Shown: in pieces, positions 1-39,565 of the stretch
How positions within the stretch are numbered: position 1 is the first letter of the stretch
Layout: every line of letters begins with the position of its first letter
Source of the DNA: Escherichia phage vB_EcoP_ZX5
Sequence record: MW722083.1
Direction: 5' to 3' (one strand)
DNA length: 39,565 bases
Translations under genes and position numbers: made by a program
The notes under the pieces: model-generated
The model's database searches: none
What the model saw: only the letters and a program-made list of their open reading frames with translations
Told to the model about the DNA's origin: nothing

Positions 1-61
1 AGGCCTGAGTTGAAGCTACCAGAGACAACAAAACGAACAGTGCAGCAAATGCTTTTTTCAT
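1..61 (-). CDS. 5' end of a small secreted-protein ORF (signal peptide MKKAFAALFVLLSLVASTQA); runs off the left edge and is in frame with 39465..39565 if the window is circular
   Basis: ATG at 61..59 on the minus strand; KK n-region, hydrophobic core and A-x-A type cleavage motif; weak Shine-Dalgarno. Confidence 0.3.
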   Translation of the reverse strand, partial: MKKAFAALFVLLSLVASTQA

Positions 62-130
62 TGTGAAATTTCCATCTATAAGCCACCTCAATGTGGCGTC
101 AATGAGTGTAGCACTGACTTTTGTTTCGTC

Positions 131-165
131 CATAAAAAAGCCCTCAGTGCGGGCTTACTTTTCTT
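131..165 (-). terminator. intrinsic terminator closing the leftward ant/accessory operon
   Basis: 6-bp stem 138-143/151-156 with 7-nt loop; A-run 134-139 gives a U-run on the minus strand; overlaps the stop codon of 155..703. Confidence 0.5.
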
Positions 166-703
166 CAGGTTTGTTGTCTTCAGATTTCTTCTTGATGCTT
201 GGTTTTTGTCTAAGAACGAAAATACCAGCCACTGCAACAACTGTACCGATCACTGTGCCAGCTAGAACTTCATGACCTGTTAAACCTAATAATGTTGCAC
301 AAGCTACTGTAAAAATAGTTGCACTCAGGCCAAACCGCTGCCCACGTTTATCTCTATTAATAGCCCCGTCAAGTGCCTTTTCCTCCATTTTCTGGCGGTG
401 AGCAAACTCCTTCTCCGTCAGCTGGAAGATGCGTTCGGGGGCATCAGGTAAAATATCCTGATACCCGCGAAGCAGATAGGGGGGAGGAAGCGGACCCTGA
501 AACGCATGGTGAGCGACAACTATCTCCTGAATTTCAGGGCGATCAAGAACTCTTGTGAAGGCATCTGGGTGTTGAATGATCTCGTTACTTAGCCCTTCCT
601 CAACTTCCTCGAACTCAGTTTCTTCGTTATCACTTGGTTGCCCAATAGATTTTTGCATATTTGTCGAAGGACATTCCTTTAGCTTCTGGTTTTCCTCTTG
701 CAT
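155..703 (-). CDS. membrane protein, DUF2335-like (acidic N-terminus, GPLPPPYLLRGYQDILPDAPERI motif, two C-terminal TM helices)
   Basis: 182-aa ORF; SD-like AGGGAA upstream of ATG 703; motif recalled from DUF2335, not searched; start at internal Met 658 is possible. Confidence 0.55.
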   Translation of the reverse strand: MQEENQKLKECPSTNMQKSIGQPSDNEETEFEEVEEGLSNEIIQHPDAFTRVLDRPEIQEIVVAHHAFQGPLPPPYLLRGYQDILPDAPERIFQLTEKEFAHRQKMEEKALDGAINRDKRGQRFGLSATIFTVACATLLGLTGHEVLAGTVIGTVVAVAGIFVLRQKPSIKKKSEDNKPEEK

Positions 704-956
704 TTGAGTTTTTCCCTGTCACTATTGCCCATTTTCCGCCAGCAGGCGCTGCAATTTTTTTTCCGTTCTTTACTATATATTCAGCATAAACACGATTTTC
801 TGACCGTCTGAGATCGTCTCCGACCATATTCATGTCTCTTGATATAACTTTGACGACAGAGTCTCGGTTTAAAGCCTTGGCATAGTTGGAGCCAGGAACG
901 ATACCCAAAGGGGTGCCAGACTCTATAGCCAGCTCCTTGACATATCTTCTGCTCAT
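630..956 (-). CDS. small basic hypothetical protein, first gene of a two-gene cassette
   Basis: 108-aa ORF from ATG 956 with GAGG SD 5 nt upstream; the track's longer start at 971 is TTG; overlaps the downstream gene by 74 nt. Confidence 0.5.
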   Translation of the reverse strand: MSRRYVKELAIESGTPLGIVPGSNYAKALNRDSVVKVISRDMNMVGDDLRRSENRVYAEYIVKNGKKIAAPAGGKWAIVTGKNSNARGKPEAKGMSFDKYAKIYWATK

Positions 957-977
957 ATGAACCTCAACCAATCGACT

Positions 978-992
978 TTACCAATCGGGTAA
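978..992. promoter_or_regulatory. palindromic operator-like site TTACCAATCGGGTAA upstream of the 630..956 cassette
   Basis: perfect TTACC-N5-GGTAA match between ant stop and cassette start. Confidence 0.45.
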
Positions 993-1077
993 TTTTAAAC
1001 ATGAGTATAATGCTTTTAACTGCAACGAGTGTAAACAATTATTGATAATTGTAGGCACATCCATGTGCCGCCGCTCG

Positions 1078-1773
1078 TCAGAAGAACCCTGCTTTGTCGT
1101 TGATGTACTCCGCGTGCGTCTGGATATCACGCAGGCATTTGCTCACACCGACGATGTAGCAGAACATGGTGGTCAGCTCCGCCGCCGCGCCCGATACGTC
1201 GTGCCCGTCTTCCTGTAACTGGTTCAGCAGATTCATCAGCAGTGAGTTCTCCGTCAGGCCGAGAACACCAGACGGCGAATGAATCAGGCTGCGGTAGCCG
1301 GGCTTCAGCGGGGCGCTGTAGGTTTTGTTCTCTATCTTCATCGCCTGCATTACTGCTGACGCCGTGGCGTTGGCTACCTGGTCGGCAACCATCTTTATGC
1401 GTTCTTCCTGCGGGAGCGAGTTTTTAATGTAACTTCCGGTGCGGCGGATCTGAGGAAGAACCTCACCTGTAACCCATTTACGAAAGCGGTAGGGGATAGT
1501 GCCTGGTGTCACTGCGTCGCGGCAGCGGAGGATCAGTGTGTAGAGGCCTGACTCGGAGATGATGATCGATTCTTGCTCACCGCCAGGGGTGTCGGTTGAA
1601 GCGACGCCCTTCTCATCATCATCAAGTTTTCGAACAGCATCTCGATGGTTTGCTATGCCTATAGCCCGACAAACATCTGAAGCGATAAACCATGGCTCAC
1701 CATTAATGACGATTACCCGTATATCGGCTTGGGATTCGAAAGAAAAAATGGACGTGCTTTTTGTAGCTGTCAT
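1078..1773 (-). CDS. ant: antirepressor (Bro-N type N-terminal domain plus Ant-type C-terminal domain)
   Basis: 231-aa ORF; N-terminus FSFESQADIRVIVINGEPWFIASDVCRAIG resembles Bro-N; AAGGTAA SD before ATG 1773. Confidence 0.8.
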   Translation of the reverse strand: MTATKSTSIFSFESQADIRVIVINGEPWFIASDVCRAIGIANHRDAVRKLDDDEKGVASTDTPGGEQESIIISESGLYTLILRCRDAVTPGTIPYRFRKWVTGEVLPQIRRTGSYIKNSLPQEERIKMVADQVANATASAVMQAMKIENKTYSAPLKPGYRSLIHSPSGVLGLTENSLLMNLLNQLQEDGHDVSGAAAELTTMFCYIVGVSKCLRDIQTHAEYINDKAGFF

Positions 1774-1929
1774 AGTGGTTACCTTTTAGTCTGGTTAATC
1801 ACCACTACCGACGCCAATCGGTTGGTGGTGAACTGTGCAGGGTTGGCGTAACCGGCTAAAAGGACCCGGCGCACCTTTCGGTGCCCCCACACAGCCCACC
1901 ATAATACGAATGTGGCCGTGCTATACGCA

Positions 1930-1950
1930 TAAAAAAACCGCTTGCGCGGT
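1930..1950 (-). terminator. weak intrinsic terminator or attenuator between the Ant-C paralog and ant
   Basis: 5-bp stem ACCGC/GCGGT 1937-1941/1946-1950; A7 run 1930-1936 gives U-run on minus strand. Confidence 0.3.
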
Positions 1951-2042
1951 GAATGCGCCTTTTAGTAATCCGGGACGCCAATCCCGGCACTGGATTTTGC
2001 CAGTGCTCGATTACTATGGCACAAGAGGAGTGCGTTGTAAAT

Positions 2043-2057
2043 TTACCGCAAAGGTAA
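2043..2057. promoter_or_regulatory. palindromic operator-like site TTACCGCAAAGGTAA upstream of ant
   Basis: perfect TTACC-N5-GGTAA match; extended near-palindrome AAATTTACC...GGTAAATAT. Confidence 0.45.
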
Positions 2058-2088: not shown

Positions 2089-2346
2089 TTATCTGGTTTG
2101 TTTTCGTAATTGTTCGGCACAATAGTCGAGATGTGTTTGCAGATCCTGCATAGACATCTGTGAGCTGGTGACGTAGTTAATCAGTGCAGTCAGTTCGGCA
2201 AGTGGGCCATCGACATTAAATCCATCCTTATCGAGATCCCGGAGTAATTTCATCAAGTGCGATCCCTCCACCAGTGACCTGACGCCTCCCGGCGTGTGAA
2301 TCCTTTCGGTAAATCCGTCTTCCAGTGGATAGTGATACTGCTGCAT
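2089..2346 (-). CDS. small protein paralogous to the C-terminal ~70 aa of the antirepressor
   Basis: 85 aa from internal ATG 2346 with GGAG SD; aligns by eye with Ant C-terminus (LMKLLRDLDKDGFNVDGPLAELT vs LMNLLNQLQEDGHDVSGAAAELT; DLQTHLDY vs DIQTHAEY); the track's longer start at 2469 would put an operator site inside the coding region. Confidence 0.5.
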   Translation of the reverse strand: MQQYHYPLEDGFTERIHTPGGVRSLVEGSHLMKLLRDLDKDGFNVDGPLAELTALINYVTSSQMSMQDLQTHLDYCAEQLRKQTR

Positions 2347-2422
2347 CTTATCTTCTCCATGCAATAACTGTATATTTATACAGTAGCAAATAATTTGTTT
2401 GCTATCCAGCACGTTTTGCAAA

Positions 2423-2437
2423 TTACCTGAAAGGTAA
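2423..2437. promoter_or_regulatory. palindromic operator-like site TTACCTGAAAGGTAA in the divergent region before the tailspike gene
   Basis: perfect match; 17-mer TTACCTGAAAGGTAATA identical to the copy at 22756. Confidence 0.45.
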
Positions 2438-2466
2438 TATCTATTCGTATTTACAGCCTTTCTATC

Positions 2467-2490
2467 CATATGTGGTTTTTCAGGTAATAG
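2467..2490 (+). promoter_or_regulatory. conserved promoter-proximal element CATATGTGGTTTTTCAGGTAATAG upstream of the tailspike gene
   Basis: 19 of 24 positions identical to 22812..22835 upstream of the head operon. Confidence 0.4.
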
Positions 2491-2541: not shown

Positions 2542-5500
2542 ATGACGGTCTCAACCGAAGTTGACCACAACGAATACACCGGTAACGGCGTTACGACATC
2601 GTTTCCGTATACTTTTCGAATTTTCAGAAAATCAGACCTGGTTGTTCAGGTGTCTGACCTGAACGGGAACGTAACAGAATTGGTTCTGGATACCGGTTAT
2701 ACGGTAACTGGGGCGGGCACTTATAGTGGCGGTTCTGTGGTTCTTCCGTCTCCGCTTGCTACTGGATGGCGAATTACGATAGATCGTGTGCTTGATGTAG
2801 TGCAGGAGACAGACCTTCGCAATCAGGGAAAATTTTTCCCCGAAGTGCATGAAGATGCCTTTGACTACCTGACGATGCTGATCCAGCAATGTTTTGGGTG
2901 GTTCAGACGTGCATTGATGAAACCATCTTTGCTTGCAAAATATTACGATGCAAAGCAAAACAAAATTTCTAACCTTGCAGATCCATCATTTGAGCAGGAC
3001 GCTGTAAATAATCGCTCAATGCGTAATTATGTCGATGCTGCAATCGCCGGGGTTGTTGGTGGTTTTGGTTGGTTTATTCAGTATGGTTCTGGGGCTGTGT
3101 ACCGAACGTTCCAGGATAAAATGCGTGATGCTATTAGCCCCAAAGATTTTGGAGCTGTTGGTGATGGTATAAATGACGATTCCACTGCAATAAGCGCGTG
3201 CCTTGAAGCCTCATCTCCAGGTTATAAAATTGACGGATTAGGGCTTACTTTTAAAGTATCAACTCTTCCGGATGTCAGTCGATTTAAAAATGCTCGTTTT
3301 TTATTTGAGAGAATACCGGGCCAGCCTCTTTTTTATGCTTCTGAAGATTTTATCCAGGGAGAGTTATTTAAAATTACAGATACACCGTGGTACAACGCCT
3401 GGACGCAGGATAAAACGTTTGTATATGACAATGTCATCTATGCGCCTTTTATGGCTGGAGACCGCCATGGTGTAAATAACCTCCATGTTGCATGGGTTCG
3501 CTCAGGAGATGACGGGAAGACCTGGACAACGCCGGAATGGCTTACAGATTTACATGAAAACTATCCCACAGTTAACTATCACTGTATGAGTATGGGGGTT
3601 GTCAGAAATCGCCTTTTTGCTGTAATTGAGACGCGGACCGTGAGAGGAAATAAACTGCAGGTTGCAGAGTTGTGGGATCGCCCAATGAGTCGCAGCCTTC
3701 GCGTTTATGGTGGTATAACGAAAGCAGCAAATCAGCAAGTCGCTTATATTCGCATTACTGATCACGGATTATTTGCTGGTGATTTTGTCAACTTCTCAAA
3801 CTCTGGTGTTACAGGTGTTACCGGGAATATGACGGTGACTACTGTTATTGATAAAAATACTTTTACAGTTACGACGCAAAATACCCAGGATGTGGATCAG
3901 AATAACGAGGGTAGATACTGGAGTTTTGGTACATCATTTCACTCGTCACCATGGAGAAAAACCAGTCTTGGAACTATTCCTTCTTTTGTTGACGGAAGCA
4001 CTCCTGTTACTGAGATTCACAGTTTTGCGACGATTAGCGATAACAGTTTTGCTGTTGGCTACCATAATGGTGATATTGGTCCACGCGAGCTTGGGATACT
4101 CTATTTCTCTGATGCTTTCGGTTCTCCTGGTAGCTTTGTTCGCAGACGCATACCTGCAGAATATGAGGCGAATGCATCTGAGCCATGTGTAAAATATTAT
4201 GATGGCATTCTGTATCTGACGACCAGGGGGACATTAAGTACTCAACCCGGTAGTTCATTGCACAGAAGCTCTGATTTAGGTACATCATGGAATTCTCTTC
4301 GCTTCCCAAATAATGTTCATCACTCAAACCTTCCTTTTGCCAAAGTTGGCGATGAGCTGATTATTTTTGGCAGTGAGCGCGCATTTGGTGAGTGGGAAGG
4401 AGGAGAACCTGATAACCGTTATGCAGGAAATTATCCAAGAACATTTATGACCAGAGTTAACGTCAATGAGTGGAGTCTGGATAATGTAGAGTGGGTTAAT
4501 GTTACTGATCAGATTTATCAGGGCGGAATAGTTAACTCTGCGGTTGGTGTTGGTTCAGTTTGTATCAAAGACAACTGGCTGTACTACATTTTCGGTGGGG
4601 AAGACTTTCTAAACCCATGGAGCATAGGGGATAACAACAGAAAATATCCTTATGTTCACGATGGTCACCCGGCTGATTTGTATTGTTTCAGGGTGAAAAT
4701 TAAACAGGAAGAATTTGTTTCAAGGGATTTTGTCTACGGAGCCACTCCTAACAGAACGCTTCCTACTTTTATGTCGACGTCAGGCGTGAGGACGGTTCCT
4801 GTACCCGTTGATTTCACAGATGATGTTGCCGTCCAGTCACTGACTGTCCATGCAGGTACATCAGGACAAGTTCGCGCGGAAGTCAAACTTGAGGGTAATT
4901 ACGCCATTATTGCGAAGAAAGTACCGTCTGATGATGTTACCGCTCAGAGATTAATCGTTAGCGGCGGTGAAACAACGTCTTCAGCAGATGGTGCAATGAT
5001 AACGTTGCATGGTTCCGGAAGCAGTACTCCACGTCGCGCGGTATATAACGCACTCGAACATCTTTTTGAGAACGGAGATGTTAAACCTTATCTTGATAAT
5101 GTAAATGCTCTTGGTGGTCCGGGAAACAGGTTCTCGACAGTTTATCTTGGCTCCAATCCTGTGGTTACCAGTGACGGAACATTAAAGACAGAGCCGGTCT
5201 CTCCTGACGAAGCATTGCTGGATGCCTGGGGTGACGTCAGGTATATCGCTTATAAATGGCTGAACGCTGTCGCTATAAAGGGGGAAGAAGGGGCGAGGAT
5301 ACATCATGGTGTAATCGCGCAGCAACTTCGTGATGTTCTTATTTCTCACGGACTCATGGAAGAAGAAAGCACAACATGCCGCTATGCCTTTCTTTGCTAT
5401 GACGATTATCCCGCAGTATATGATGACGTCATTACTGGCCAAAGGGAAATGCCGCTGACTGATAATGACGGGAGCATCATTGTTGATGAGGATGATAATC

Positions 5501-5661
5501 CAGTGATGGTAATGGAAGACATCATTGAGCGCGTTGAAATAACGCCAGCAGGATCTAGATGGGGGGTCAGACCTGATCTCTTATTCTATATCGAGGCAGC
5601 ATGGCAGCGCAGAGAAATGGATAAGATAAAAGAGCGGATTCAGTCTCTGGAAGAACGTTAA
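2542..5661 (+). CDS. tailspike: T7 gp17-like N-terminal anchor, pectate-lyase-like beta-helix signature, C-terminal S74-type intramolecular chaperone domain
   Basis: 1039-aa ORF with GGAGA SD; N-terminus GNGVTTSFPYTFRIFRKSDLVVQV; central DFGAVGDGINDDSTAI motif; C-terminal chaperone-like block. Confidence 0.85.
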   Translation: MTVSTEVDHNEYTGNGVTTSFPYTFRIFRKSDLVVQVSDLNGNVTELVLDTGYTVTGAGTYSGGSVVLPSPLATGWRITIDRVLDVVQETDLRNQGKFFPEVHEDAFDYLTMLIQQCFGWFRRALMKPSLLAKYYDAKQNKISNLADPSFEQDAVNNRSMRNYVDAAIAGVVGGFGWFIQYGSGAVYRTFQDKMRDAISPKDFGAVGDGINDDSTAISACLEASSPGYKIDGLGLTFKVSTLPDVSRFKNARFLFERIPGQPLFYASEDFIQGELFKITDTPWYNAWTQDKTFVYDNVIYAPFMAGDRHGVNNLHVAWVRSGDDGKTWTTPEWLTDLHENYPTVNYHCMSMGVVRNRLFAVIETRTVRGNKLQVAELWDRPMSRSLRVYGGITKAANQQVAYIRITDHGLFAGDFVNFSNSGVTGVTGNMTVTTVIDKNTFTVTTQNTQDVDQNNEGRYWSFGTSFHSSPWRKTSLGTIPSFVDGSTPVTEIHSFATISDNSFAVGYHNGDIGPRELGILYFSDAFGSPGSFVRRRIPAEYEANASEPCVKYYDGILYLTTRGTLSTQPGSSLHRSSDLGTSWNSLRFPNNVHHSNLPFAKVGDELIIFGSERAFGEWEGGEPDNRYAGNYPRTFMTRVNVNEWSLDNVEWVNVTDQIYQGGIVNSAVGVGSVCIKDNWLYYIFGGEDFLNPWSIGDNNRKYPYVHDGHPADLYCFRVKIKQEEFVSRDFVYGATPNRTLPTFMSTSGVRTVPVPVDFTDDVAVQSLTVHAGTSGQVRAEVKLEGNYAIIAKKVPSDDVTAQRLIVSGGETTSSADGAMITLHGSGSSTPRRAVYNALEHLFENGDVKPYLDNVNALGGPGNRFSTVYLGSNPVVTSDGTLKTEPVSPDEALLDAWGDVRYIAYKWLNAVAIKGEEGARIHHGVIAQQLRDVLISHGLMEEESTTCRYAFLCYDDYPAVYDDVITGQREMPLTDNDGSIIVDEDDNPVMVMEDIIERVEITPAGSRWGVRPDLLFYIEAAWQRREMDKIKERIQSLEER

Positions 5662-5967: not shown

Positions 5968-6372
5968 ATGTCTGCTCAAGTAACAAGTGAGCAATTAAAT
6001 CAGTTGCTTAGTTTTGGTTCTCTTGCTGCGGTTATTGCAGGTGTCCCTCCGGAGGTTGCTTTAGGGGCTTTGGCTGGGGCGGTAATTTTTGTTACCTCTG
6101 CAGTAGAGTACCCCATCCGTCGCCGGGTGCTCCTGTCGATGCTCAGCTTTCTTTGCGGCCTTCTCTTTTACAAACCAGCAGCATCAATTCTTATCGGCAT
6201 AGCCAGCCTGATCCCTACCATCACGCAGGACTCTTTTGAAAAAGGGATTGTTTTCTCTGCAGGCGCATTCGTGTCAGCAATTGTCGCTGTGCGTATTGGT
6301 ATATGGCTCTATCACCGTTCCGATAATCCACGCGAGTTAATTCCGGGGAGAAAAGACGATGGTAACGCATGA
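5968..6372 (+). CDS. holin-like membrane protein (about 4 TM segments)
   Basis: 134-aa hydrophobic ORF with GGAGAAAG SD, immediately before the endolysin. Confidence 0.6.
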   Translation: MSAQVTSEQLNQLLSFGSLAAVIAGVPPEVALGALAGAVIFVTSAVEYPIRRRVLLSMLSFLCGLLFYKPAASILIGIASLIPTITQDSFEKGIVFSAGAFVSAIVAVRIGIWLYHRSDNPRELIPGRKDDGNA

Positions 6373-6667
6373 GTTTTTTTTGCTTATCACCAATGCAGTT
6401 ATTTGCACTGGCATAGCAATTCGCGTTGTCACATTCCGGCGTAACGGCTCTCAACATCGAAGGTGGGGAGGATGGCTTGCTTATTTCCTGATTGTTGCTG
6501 CGGCCAGTATTCCTGTTCGAGTCGCCTATGCAATCTGGTTACGTACGCCAATGGCTGTGGATTTATCTGAGGTCATTATCAACGCTGTCATGCTGGCTGC
6601 GGTTATTAAAACGCGCGGTAACGTCGTTCAAATTTTTAAAGTATCGAGGTCTAAACATGGAGATTAA
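6359..6667 (+). CDS. second holin/antiholin-like membrane protein (about 3 TM segments)
   Basis: 102-aa ORF with GGGGAGAAAA SD; overlaps upstream gene by 14 nt and endolysin by 11 nt. Confidence 0.5.
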
Positions 6668-7286
6668 ACAATTCCAGCGAGCTGCTGGTATCAGCGAGGC
6701 ACTGGCCGCACGCTGGTTCTCGCATATAACTTCTGCGATGAAAGAGTTTGGTATCAGCAAAGCAGAAGATCAGGCAATGTTTATTGCTCAAGTCGGGCAT
6801 GAGTCTGGGGGCTTCACCAGGTTGCAGGAGAATTTCAACTACAGTGTCAGCGGACTGGCTAACTTCGTTCGGGCTGGGCGTCTCACTCAGGGGCAGGCTA
6901 ATGCACTGGGGCGCCGTGCTGGTGAACCACCATTGCCACTTGAGCGCCAGCGCGCGATCGCAAATCTGGTATACAGCAAACGCATGGGGAACAATGCCCC
7001 TGGTGATGGCTGGAATTACCGAGGGCGCGGACTTATCCAGATTACCGGTTTGAATAACTATCGTGATTGCGGAAACGGTCTGAAGGTTGACCTGCTGGAG
7101 AGCCCTGAACTGCTGGCGCAGGACGGATATGCGGCTCGTAGCGCGGCGTGGTTCTTCGCCAGCAAAGGATGCATGAAGTATACCGGCGATATTGCACGTG
7201 TAACTCTGATTATCAATGGTGGCCGGAACGGCATCGACGACCGGCGAGCGCGGTACATCACTGCCAGTAAGGTGCTGGCGGTATGA
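6657..7286 (+). CDS. endolysin, glycoside hydrolase family 19 (chitinase-like) type
   Basis: 209 aa from ATG 6657 with GAGGT SD; motifs [12 protein letters not shown] and [12 protein letters not shown]; the track start 6492 is an unsupported 5' extension. Confidence 0.85.
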
Positions 7287-7765
7287 TCTGGGCATTCGTA
7301 AAAGCATACTGGAAACAGTTTCTTATCGTGGCAGTGCTTGCTGTTCTGGTCATATCAGGAGTGGTTGCCTGGAATATACACGGCAGTCGCCAGTACGATG
7401 CCGGGTATGCTCAGGCGGAAGAAGACCGCAAAGCCGAAGAAGACAAAGTTCGTCAGTACTACGAACAGGAGAAAGTGACCAATGAACGTGAAGCTCAGCA
7501 GAGGATCGACCAGGCGAGCAATGATGCTCTTGATGCTGCCGCTAGCGCTGGCCGGTTGCAGCAACAACTCTTTGCCATCCGTGAGCAGCTCAGGCAGTAT
7601 AACGCCATTGTCGGCGCTGGGTCGTCAGCCGCAGACACCGGAGTTTTGCTTGCCGACGTGCTCAGCAAATCTCTCGAGAGAAACAGACAACTGGCAGAGT
7701 ATGCTGACCGGGCAGCCGAAGCAGGAAGAGTCTGCGAAAAACAGTACGACACTTTGACCAGATAG
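7283..7765 (+). CDS. i-spanin (Rz-like), N-terminal TM plus coiled coil
   Basis: ATGA overlap with endolysin stop; N-terminal [20 protein letters not shown], charged periplasmic coiled coil. Confidence 0.75.
7521..7757 (+). CDS. o-spanin (Rz1-like lipoprotein) nested in the +1 frame of the i-spanin gene
   Basis: [13 protein letters not shown] lipobox, Pro-rich, wholly embedded in 7283..7765. Confidence 0.7.
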   Translation: MMLLMLPLALAGCSNNSLPSVSSSGSITPLSALGRQPQTPEFCLPTCSANLSRETDNWQSMLTGQPKQEESAKNSTTL

Positions 7766-13047: not shown

Positions 13048-13062
13048 TTACCGTTGAGGTAA
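13048..13062. promoter_or_regulatory. palindromic operator-like site TTACCGTTGAGGTAA (OL-like, proximal)
   Basis: perfect match 20 bp upstream of the first leftward early gene. Confidence 0.45.
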
Positions 13063-13181: not shown

Positions 13182-13766
13182 TTATTGTTTGTTTTTTTCG
13201 TTCTGGTTGATGACAAATTCAATGTAACTTTCGATCTTTGCTTTCTCGGTTTCGGGTAACAATGCGTAGCGCGAGCGGTCATAGTTGATGGTCGCAGGGT
13301 CGTGCGGGTGAATCAGTAATTCATAGCCGTGACGCCCGAATGCGGATGCAACATTCTCCAGGGTGGAAATGGAAACGCTGACCTCATTGTTTAACAGGCG
13401 ACTGATTGTCACCTGGGCGACGCCGGATGCGCGGTGAAGTTTTCCCTGCGTTGAAAGGTCGCGGCTTTCGCTCATCCAGCGTTCCAGGTTGTGAGCCGCC
13501 AGCTGACCTATATCGCTCGGGCCGACAGGCTGAAAACCTTCCTGAGAAAGCGAGCGATCGATATCAAGCCAGTTACGTGGTTTATTGGCGGCAGCTTCAA
13601 TTTTTCGCGCAACCTGGTCGCCGATAACCTTCTTGCCAAGAGCCCAGCGGTTTACCAGATTTGCCTGAGTTCCAAGTTTTTCTGCCATCCGCGTCTGAAC
13701 ACCATTGAATTCACGGTCGATCAAGTCGTTGAGATTTTGCCTGCGGACGTCCTGGATACTTTTCAT
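13182..13766 (-). CDS. repressor with two helix-turn-helix motifs (tandem HTH)
   Basis: 194 aa; HTH-like QTRMAEKLGTQANLVNRWALGKK and SGVAQVTISRLLNNEVSVSISTLENVASAF; divergent from the cro-like gene across an operator-rich spacer. Confidence 0.65.
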   Translation of the reverse strand: MKSIQDVRRQNLNDLIDREFNGVQTRMAEKLGTQANLVNRWALGKKVIGDQVARKIEAAANKPRNWLDIDRSLSQEGFQPVGPSDIGQLAAHNLERWMSESRDLSTQGKLHRASGVAQVTISRLLNNEVSVSISTLENVASAFGRHGYELLIHPHDPATINYDRSRYALLPETEKAKIESYIEFVINQNEKNKQ

Positions 13767-38844: not shown

Positions 38845-38967
38845 ATGGTTCAAATAACTTTTATTGTACTAATATGTGCAGCGTTTTTATGCTATTCATA
38901 CATTTTGATAAAAATGGGTTTCAATTGGAATCTCTGTTGCGTGCAGCGGCATGGTTCGGCTTTGTAG
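38845..38967 (+). CDS. small hydrophobic peptide (AT-rich moron)
   Basis: 40 aa not in the track; AAGGAG 38834-38839, ATG 38845 after 5-nt spacer; alternative overlapping 62-aa frame 38817..39005. Confidence 0.3.
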   Translation: MVQITFIVLICAAFLCYSYILIKMGFNWNLCCVQRHGSAL

Positions 38968-39052
38968 TATTCGGAATTGTATTGTTCGGAAGAATAATAA
39001 AATAACTAGTTAATTTGTGGATTGGTGCTGTTTTTCCATGATAGGGGTAATT

Positions 39053-39433
39053 ATGAGAAAAGTATTTTTGATTTTTGGATTTATGCTTCTCGTTGGATGC
39101 CAGTCAGCTGCACAGTTTGAAAGAAATATGCTTACGTGGCGCGGGCAGAGTATAGACGCAATGGTTCAGCAGTGGGGGTATCCTCAGGGAGAGCTTACAT
39201 CTCCAGATGGAAACAGAGTGTATGTTTACTCAAGCTCTGGTAGTTATAACGTACCACAAACCACAACGTATAATACTACGTCTAATCTAATTGGTAATAC
39301 TATATATTCAAACACATACGCAACAACTGATGGCGGTTATACACTCCATTTCAGTTGCTCTGTTTACGTTGAGTTTGGTGCTGATAAGATTATTAAAAAT
39401 GTTACATGGCGCGGTAATAATTGCGTTGCGTGA
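39053..39433 (+). CDS. lipoprotein, candidate superinfection-exclusion or surface-modifying moron
   Basis: MRKVFLIFGFMLLVGC signal peptide with lipobox; AT-rich relative to neighbours; followed by a terminator. Confidence 0.65.
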   Translation: MRKVFLIFGFMLLVGCQSAAQFERNMLTWRGQSIDAMVQQWGYPQGELTSPDGNRVYVYSSSGSYNVPQTTTYNTTSNLIGNTIYSNTYATTDGGYTLHFSCSVYVEFGADKIIKNVTWRGNNCVA

Positions 39434-39441: not shown

Positions 39442-39467
39442 AGGCCGCTTTCGCGGCCTTGTTTTTA
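39442..39467 (+). terminator. intrinsic terminator after the lipoprotein gene
   Basis: 7-bp stem AGGCCGC/GCGGCCT with loop TTTC, then TGTTTTTA. Confidence 0.7.
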
Positions 39468-39565
39468 ACGAATGCCACCGCCACCCGGGCGGGAATCCGC
39501 AGAACGCCCACCGCAGCGGGAGCCGTCAGCGGCAGTATCGCTGTCGTGCTGACAACGACCGGCAA
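39465..39565 (-). CDS. possible 3' part of the junction-spanning secreted-peptide ORF (valid only if window end joins window start)
   Basis: frame continuous with 1..61 across the ends; stop TAA at 39467..39465 next to the convergent terminator. Confidence 0.25.
   Translation of the reverse strand, partial: AGRCQHDSDTAADGSRCGGRSADSRPGGGGIR

Follow-up and report, generated by a model that had tools for sequence, protein, structure and literature searches.

A two-gene accessory cassette encoding a DUF2335 membrane protein and its partner beside the anti-repressor gene of Escherichia phage vB_EcoP_ZX5

Introduction

Escherichia phage vB_EcoP_ZX5 (ZX5), a published temperate podovirus of E. coli in the genus Uetakevirus, carries two small genes beside its anti-repressor gene, ant. 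The question raised by this locus is whether the two genes form a unit and, if so, of what kind. The genome (sequence record MW722083.1) is 39,565 bp long; this whole stretch is the window analyzed here, and positions without a locus name refer to it. In the published annotation (Table S2), the two genes are open reading frame (ORF) 2 at 658..155 and ORF3 at 956..630, and the anti-repressor is ORF4 at 1773..1078. The ZX5 paper describes ORF2 and ORF3 as hypothetical proteins in which the phage differs from other Uetakeviruses. The same paper used over-expression to identify ORF21 as the repressor and ORF4 as the anti-repressor, and reported a lysogen without any growth, stress or virulence phenotype.

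We find that the two genes, which encode a small basic protein and a DUF2335 inner-membrane protein, are a real, self-contained two-gene phage accessory cassette. An earlier reading of the same DNA, referred to below as the original prediction, had already proposed such a cassette.

The two genes and their products

Both genes lie on the minus strand and overlap, as the original prediction had described. The ORFs and translations are recovered at the coordinates of Table S2, and both products match PHROG clusters. The first gene, ORF3 (630..956), starts at ATG 956 behind a Shine-Dalgarno sequence (GAGG, 962..965) and encodes 108 amino acids (aa). Its product matches PHROG 10654 (E=9.5e-66) and no Pfam family. 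With an isoelectric point of 10.0 and no hydrophobic segment, it is the basic, soluble protein that had been expected. An N-terminal conserved core (RRY..ESGxPLGIxPxSxY...DMxxVGxDxRR) is followed by a basic, low-complexity middle and a C-terminal motif, FxKYAxLYWATK, that overlaps the start of ORF2. The core has neither a helix-turn-helix (HTH) nor a ribbon-helix-helix (RHH) signature, and no match in Pfam or the PDB. On its own, the protein is probably disordered.

The second gene, ORF2 (155..658, minus strand), encodes 167 aa from ATG 658; an alternative start at ATG 703 would give 155..703 and 182 aa. Residues 73-122 match the full Pfam DUF2335 model (PF10097, model positions 1-50) with 57.2 bits against a cut-off of 25, and the GPLPPP...PERI motif falls inside this match. 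The protein also matches PHROG 3996 (‘membrane protein’, in the moron category) with E=1.4e-58. Hydrophobic helices lie at about 124-141 and 145-165, with Kyte-Doolittle peaks at 133 and 153-157. An AlphaFold2 (AF2) model built with 14 homologues places helices at 88-141 and 145-165, and the hydrophobic helices are conserved across these homologues. From N- to C-terminus, the protein thus consists of an acidic tail, the helical DUF2335 domain and a hairpin made of two transmembrane (TM) helices rich in small residues. This is the protein that had been sketched earlier as DUF2335-like, with an acidic N-terminus, the proline-containing motif and two C-terminal TM helices; the Pfam match and the helices from hydropathy and AF2 now support each of these elements. 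Because basic residues border both TM helices, as can be read directly from the sequence, both termini are predicted to be cytoplasmic and the DUF2335 domain cytosolic.

The PHROG matches of both proteins and the conservation of the pair in many lineages leave no doubt that both ORFs are coding. They are also translationally coupled: ORF2 is in the +1 frame relative to ORF3 and, with ATG 658, the start used by the published annotation and by EC.W1-9, the overlap is 29 nt. Other lineages, in phages of Klebsiella, Cronobacter, Rahnella, Leptospira and Streptococcus, have overlaps of 17-32 nt.

The two genes are flanked by a promoter, a palindrome at 978..992 and an intrinsic terminator at 138..156. 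Both the palindrome and the terminator of the discrete cassette foreseen in the original prediction were thus located, and promoters were found as well. The terminator (minus strand; AAGCCC-loop-GGGCTT, then TTTTTAT) has a 6-bp GC-rich stem and overlaps the ORF2 stop codon; its fold z-score is only -1.8. All related prophages keep it as the left edge of this locus, downstream of differing cargos. On the other side, just past the ant stop codon, is a minus-strand hairpin (GGCACAT-GG-ATGTGCC, 1054..1069) with no T-run, and transcription of the ant operon may read through into the cassette.

An obligate partner for DUF2335

In Klebsiella, Cronobacter and Rahnella prophages, the DUF2335 gene is always preceded by a small overlapping ORF with the same motifs as ORF3, often uncalled by gene finders. 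The generality of this arrangement was assessed with 80 IMG/VR loci holding DUF2335 relatives down to 33% identity, together with annotated Klebsiella, Leptospira and Streptococcus phages. A hidden Markov model (HMM) of the partner was iterated over 15,804 six-frame ORFs from 119 loci at a threshold of E<=1e-3. Each of the 105 matches (105/105) is immediately followed by a DUF2335 ORF on its own strand, with 0 matches elsewhere; they come from Enterobacterales, Leptospira and uncultured metagenomic phages. Nine DUF2335 loci have no HMM match: five end at the start of the DUF2335 gene, and in the other four a divergent partner can be seen by eye, as can divergent partner-like ORFs in Streptococcus phages. 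The ORF3-type protein is an obligate, mostly unannotated partner of DUF2335, and the two are found together in every lineage examined.

At <70% identity, the partners fall into 19 non-redundant lineages that share the core RRY..[AG]xGSxLxI.P..dY...(10-20)...D[WM]xxVGxDiRxa. Short forms of 60-90 aa stop soon after the core, and the enterobacterial form adds the basic middle and FxKYAxLYWATK. Direct searches reveal little of this family. A phmmer search of 1.84 billion representatives with ORF3 returned about seven true relatives along with spurious long repeat proteins, and word-index searches added few; the family emerged only by position-guided HMM iteration on the fetched loci. In one uncultured-phage lineage (L060), the regular partner is immediately preceded, in tandem, by a second ORF (3575..3817) that has a partner-like motif at its C-terminus (DMENLRKDRDNVARDVRTAF) and is possibly a duplicated partner.

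Whether the pair occurs as a unit at variable loci in other prophages was a check proposed with the original prediction, and it does so in many of them. It adjoins ant in ZX5, Cronobacter and Klebsiella; in a Klebsiella siphovirus it is next to an antirepressor gene just upstream of the tape-measure gene. It follows Q in a Rahnella lambdoid prophage, lies within the baseplate cluster of an E. coli lambdoid/myovirus prophage, comes after the lysin gene at the prophage end in Streptococcus, and is among the early genes of uncultured metagenomic phages. Among the loci examined, no neighboring gene is constant. The pair is present in 12 of 50,697 deposited phage records, and because of this rarity we do not consider it a core function.

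Promoters and a phage-wide operator

Two sigma-70-like promoters precede the cassette on the minus strand. The proximal one (992..1019, TTAAAA-16-TAAAAT) has a -10 element that overlaps the left arm of the palindrome by one base, and orthologous cassettes have the same design (TTGACG-16-TAAGAT, TTGCAA-16-TATTAT). For the distal one (1007..1035, TTTACA-17-CATTAT), the palindrome would be at about +8..+22; this promoter is kept in the Cronobacter orthologue and in orthologues of 88-91% identity. The palindrome itself, TTACC-N5-GGTAA (TTACCAATCGGGTAA, 978..992), lies over the -10/+1 region of the cassette promoter. In orthologous cassettes its arms are conserved and its 5-nt spacer varies.

The original prediction had regarded this site as an operator belonging to the cassette. 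It is real and non-random, but it is not the cassette's own: a motif scan finds 14 copies in the window, 10 of them exact, against 0.59 expected. They start at 978, 2043, 2423, 8026, 13048, 13110, 13822, 13870, 14207, 16109, 16171, 19625, 19643 and 22756. The repressor gene has two copies to its left and two to its right, arranged like PL and PR, and a Cro-like gene is opposite. More stand before int, the terminase (late) genes, the ant operon and further units, and one is in the intergenic region between a 126-aa ORF and the tailspike gene. Three other sites, those at 2043 (ant operon), 13110 and 19625 (terminase), also show the one-base overlap of -10 element and left arm, and by eye PL at 13048 is similarly arranged. 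TL-2011b, a related phage without the cassette, has 14 palindromes at homologous places.

With 14 copies and this placement around the repressor gene, the palindrome is best read as a phage-wide operator of the ORF21 repressor and its presumed binding site. Such a distribution suggests direct control of almost all transcription units by a single repressor, as in P1. Because the putative repressor operator covers the promoter of the cassette, the cassette is probably silent in the stable lysogen and would come on at the start of infection or once Ant has relieved repression. The phage-wide character of the operator thus makes the lysogenic state a less likely time for the cassette to act. A host factor of the MqsA type, with the site ACCT-N3-AGGT, was also considered and rejected: the conserved bases are TTACC/GGTAA, and the inner T/A is missing at many sites.

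Several observations concern the immunity genes themselves. The ORF21 gene (13182..13766, minus strand) encodes 194 aa with, by eye, two HTH-like units and no S24 peptidase domain, a make-up that fits induction via the anti-repressor rather than RecA cleavage. Upstream of ant, Rfam models match the minus strand over 1821..2019: a C4 antisense RNA at 1821..1906 (77.7 bits), IsrK at 1931..2006 (77.9 bits) and a c4 a1/b1 target element at 1967..2019. Given these C4/IsrK elements, the anti-repressor appears to be under antisense-RNA control of the P1/P7 immI type. The promoter from which this control is driven carries the operator copy at 2043..2057. Between ant and the tailspike gene, a small minus-strand ORF at 2089..2469, for which the E. 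coli SF-468 annotation gives 2089..2346, shows homology to the Bro-N/Ant protein in the C-terminal domain alone (PHROG 450, 15539). It is a stand-alone Ant C-terminal domain and has an operator copy at 2423.

A slot for exchangeable cargo

The region between ant and the terminator can be compared across about 490 E. coli genomes that share its flanks (window 1..~160 and 1053 onward); 68 of them hold the DUF2335 pair. The slot covers about 160..1052, with equivalents in L104 and L115-L118, and its boundaries were obtained with blastn against five loci with alternative cargo and by comparison with TL-2011b. The right edge is the hairpin at 1054..1069, with similarity resuming at 1053, and the left edge is the terminator. 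The alternative cargos are a 59-aa gene with a YafO-family toxin gene, a DUF4760 gene, a pair of 55 and 146 aa, a pair of 69 and 251 aa, and a single 210-aa protein; none has a PADLOC match. Four of the five carry an exact operator copy in otherwise unrelated promoter regions, and repressor control is therefore likely to be a selected property of slot cargo. All of the slot cargos are candidates for the same kind of function.

The pair thus has its own promoter and terminator and is present in some close relatives of ZX5 and absent from others: the cassette is a mobile two-gene accessory module, or moron.

Beyond the terminator lies a gene for a 53-aa signal-peptide protein. The window is a circular permutation whose last bases join its first inside this minus-strand gene, with the 5' part at 1..62 and the remainder at 39466..39565. 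Read across the genome ends, it is a single ORF (MKKAFAALFVLLSLVASTQAFAGRCQHD...GGGIR), which the published annotation divides into the artefactual ORF53 (39563..39465) and ORF1 (133..2). Its product has no Pfam match. We considered this gene as a third member of the cassette and rejected it, since it is a backbone gene that adjoins every alternative cargo.

The palindrome in unrelated prophages

In two prophages of other kinds, the palindrome is found on the promoter of a DUF2335 cassette. A Rahnella lambdoid prophage has its only TTACC-N5-GGTAA in 13.8 kb there (L101 9637..9651), and an E. coli E308-type prophage, with a DUF2335 protein only 41% identical, has its only exact copy in 65 kb at the same place (L119 24914..24928); 0.01-0.2 palindromes would be expected in these stretches. 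Neither locus, as far as examined, has an ORF21 homologue. The prophages' own repressors were rejected as binders, because their OR regions have other operators.

Three explanations can be offered. The cassettes may have been acquired en bloc, a Uetakevirus-like phage being the donor. This is supported in Rahnella, where the cassette is also followed by the 53-aa backbone gene, yet the divergence of the sequences makes passive retention of the palindrome surprising. Another possibility is binding by the partner itself, and a third is binding by a host or co-resident factor. The palindrome is missing from the cassettes of Klebsiella RAH1, Leptospira and L013, and L015 has a degenerate variant only. 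In distant lineages the inverted repeats upstream of the cassette all differ and are uninformative.

Comparison with known systems

Neither protein has a characterized function in Pfam, NCBIfam, PADLOC or PDB sequences. They belong to PF10097, PHROG 3996 and PHROG 10654, clusters without an assigned function, and the partner is in no Pfam family. Against PADLOC-DB v2.0.0, neither matches a defense family at E<=1; the two family profiles find nothing meaningful among PDB sequences, and Foldseek with the ORF2 AF2 model finds nothing in the PDB or BFVD at E<1. The earlier statement that neither protein matches a characterized phage function therefore holds through the profile, PDB-sequence and fold searches. 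In the literature, no functional study appears under ‘DUF2335’ or ‘PF10097’. The only uses of ‘DUF2335’ are in type VI secretion system (T6SS) papers naming a phospholipase, and there the name is almost certainly a slip for DUF2235/Tle1. Tle1, of the DUF2235 family, is a T6SS phospholipase.

The closest counterpart by location is the pair of TL-2011b, a 59-aa protein with a YafO toxin (gp45/gp44). It shares the slot, the orientation, the overlap with the small gene first and the operator on the promoter. There is no homology, though: the putative effector of ZX5 is an integral membrane protein and not an mRNA interferase, and its partner has no recognizable DNA-binding fold. More generally, a 108-aa gene followed by a 167-aa gene with a 29-nt overlap has the layout of a type II toxin-antitoxin system, and neither protein matches such a family in Pfam, NCBIfam or PADLOC.

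Lambda RexA and RexB, an abortive-infection pair, are likewise a soluble and a membrane protein of a temperate phage, and the logic proposed below for the ZX5 pair, a membrane lesion under control of the partner, is similar. RexAB is expressed with cI in the lysogen, and RexB has four TM helices. Sizes, topologies and the predicted time of expression differ from those of the ZX5 pair, and the PADLOC scan gave no homology, no direct comparison with Rex having been made. The resemblance to P1 immunity lies in one operator over many transcription units and in a C4/IsrK-type antisense RNA upstream of ant. In P1, C1 operators are scattered over the genome and the c4 antisense RNA controls ant. This likeness is in the regulation around the cassette rather than in its proteins, and the operator and repressor are unrelated to those of C1 as far as examined. 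The cassette is a DUF2335 member and a moron, outside any characterized exclusion, abortive-infection, toxin-antitoxin or holin family.

Proposed function and alternatives

As a tentative reading, one that could well prove wrong, we propose that the cassette encodes a membrane effector and a partner that regulates it, related much like a toxin and its antidote, and that derepression brings the two into play in conflicts among phages or between phage and host. The repressor would keep the module off in the stable lysogen; where the repressor is absent or inactivated, as in early infection or Ant-mediated induction, the module would come on. The DUF2335 protein, as the putative effector, would enter the inner membrane with both termini in the cytoplasm, oligomerize via its Gly/Ala/Thr-rich helices and perturb the membrane, whether its permeability, its potential or a membrane-bound process. 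The basic partner may bind the acidic cytosolic N-terminal region of the DUF2335 protein and so set or restrain its activity. The likely benefit would be excluding or aborting competing phages, or host takeover, in the lytic phase.

The coupled and obligate pairing, the mobility and rarity of the pair, the operator on its promoter, the slot shared with a YafO pair and the membrane hairpin speak for this proposal. Several points weigh against it. In the searches made, neither protein has a sequence or fold relation to a known toxin, holin, exclusion or defense protein. The structural models are weak: the ORF2 model has a predicted local distance difference test (pLDDT) score of 60, a moderate confidence, and the ORF3 model, built from a single sequence, has 34 and is unusable. 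A hint of direct contact between ORF3 and ORF2, in favor of the proposal, comes from charge: most lineages combine a basic partner with an acidic DUF2335 N-terminal region (Spearman correlation -0.41), and in the Leptospira pair the charges are swapped. The correlation is uncorrected for phylogeny and uses guessed start codons. The lysogen without a phenotype fits a silent cassette and equally fits a cassette with no activity. Finally, the immunity regions of the Rahnella and E308-type prophages use other operators, yet the cassette palindrome is kept there.

A wider version of the proposal is more doubtful still. It would make the pair a hitherto unrecognized cross-phylum conflict system, with a membrane effector and an obligate regulator wired to the repressor, that fires only at immunity collapse or in lytic growth and either excludes competitors or, if induction is hijacked by another element, sacrifices the cell. 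Derepression-triggered cargos would then have a hotspot in the ant-proximal slot of Uetakeviruses.

The original prediction had likened the pair to exclusion, abortive-infection or toxin-antitoxin modules. The position in a slot that elsewhere holds a YafO pair agrees with that resemblance, but homology to SieA or SieB is absent (for P22 SieB, hhalign with the DUF2335 profile gives a probability of 0.07%), and the repressor operator argues against a role expressed in the lysogen. Superinfection exclusion in particular, in which the inner-membrane DUF2335 protein and its partner would stop the conduit of incoming ejection proteins in the manner of P22 SieA or T4 Imm, through leaky expression in the lysogen or early lytic expression, seems to us unlikely. 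SieA is also a small inner-membrane protein, and in ZX5 the gene sits in the accessory arm of a temperate podovirus, between the ejection/internal-virion genes and the ant region, which is the position of sieA in P22. P22 SieA works alone, crosses the membrane with three TM helices and is made by the prophage, whereas ORF2 has two TM helices and a large cytosolic domain, a partner and a repressor operator that argues against the prophage expression SieA needs. In hhalign, the DUF2335 profile matches SieA with a probability of 1.4%, and the motif FxRYPxEAxxFNK of SieA types A-C is absent from ORF2. Exclusion of the T4 Imm type is expressed in lytic growth and would fit repressor control, but neither SieA nor Imm offers a precedent for a soluble partner that is obligate. 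The occurrence of the pair in podo-, sipho- and myoviruses and in Gram-positive hosts argues against a specific ejection-protein target.

A role in lysis timing, with a holin- or antiholin-like membrane protein that tunes the phage's own holins under regulation by the partner, is improbable. A hairpin of two helices rich in small residues, with cytoplasmic termini and probable lytic-phase expression, would suit such a role, and the pair lies between Q and the lysis genes in Rahnella and directly after lytA in Streptococcus. There is, however, no holin match in Pfam. Apart from the cassette, ZX5 has lysis genes of its own at 5968..7765: two holin-like genes, an endolysin and a spanin. In most phages the pair is distant from the lysis genes, and it is absent from most relatives that share the lysis cassette.

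We give equally little credence to a purely regulatory module, in which the partner would bind TTACC-N5-GGTAA as an autoregulator or Cro-like competitor of the repressor, with the DUF2335 protein as a tether that sequesters it at the membrane or sets it free. Retention of the palindrome at the cassette promoter of two lambdoid prophages with other repressor operators would be explained in this way, and sequestration of a strongly basic partner by an acidic membrane-bound domain is conceivable. Against it, the palindrome also precedes cargos that have no such partner, recurs throughout the cassette-free TL-2011b and is missing or degenerate in the four cassettes named above; the partner core has no recognizable DNA-binding signature or match; and the 53-aa gene in Rahnella suggests that block and operator were acquired together from a Uetakevirus-like donor.

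A selfish or neutral passenger, kept by horizontal transfer alone without benefit to phage or host, would agree with the phenotype-free lysogen and the patchy distribution, but it is very improbable given that both ORFs are intact, that motifs, overlap and gene order are kept down to 33% identity and across phyla, and that the regulatory elements are conserved. The remaining probability goes to functions outside those considered here.

Other features of the genome

A second variable cargo region is found at 38846..39433, between the gene for an 824-aa internal virion protein and the 53-aa gene. In ZX5 it encodes a small membrane protein and a lipoprotein-like ORF (MRKVFLIFGFMLLVGC...); the matching region of E. 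coli SF-468 (L012 4287..4769) encodes different membrane proteins. The tailspike (2542..5661) has an endosialidase beta-propeller and an intramolecular chaperone domain, and close prophage relatives are in K1-type and extraintestinal isolates (blood, cerebrospinal fluid). Because of this tailspike and these relatives, ZX5 can be regarded as a K1-capsule-specific Uetakevirus.

Conclusions

Two hypothetical proteins of a published phage become one defined, testable unit. The cassette has no earlier description as a module, though its kind is familiar, and it offers a lead worth following by experiment rather than a demonstrated new system; if it has no phenotype, the pair is an ordinary moron. 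Recognizing the obligate, mostly unannotated partner of DUF2335 should better the annotation of many phage and prophage genomes, and this mobile pair is conserved in phages ranging from enterobacterial ones to those of Leptospira. Should it turn out to act on the membrane in conflict or takeover, it would add a new family and hint at a class of accessory genes that are silent in the prophage and deployed at derepression, a timing that standard screens for lysogen-expressed defense would miss.

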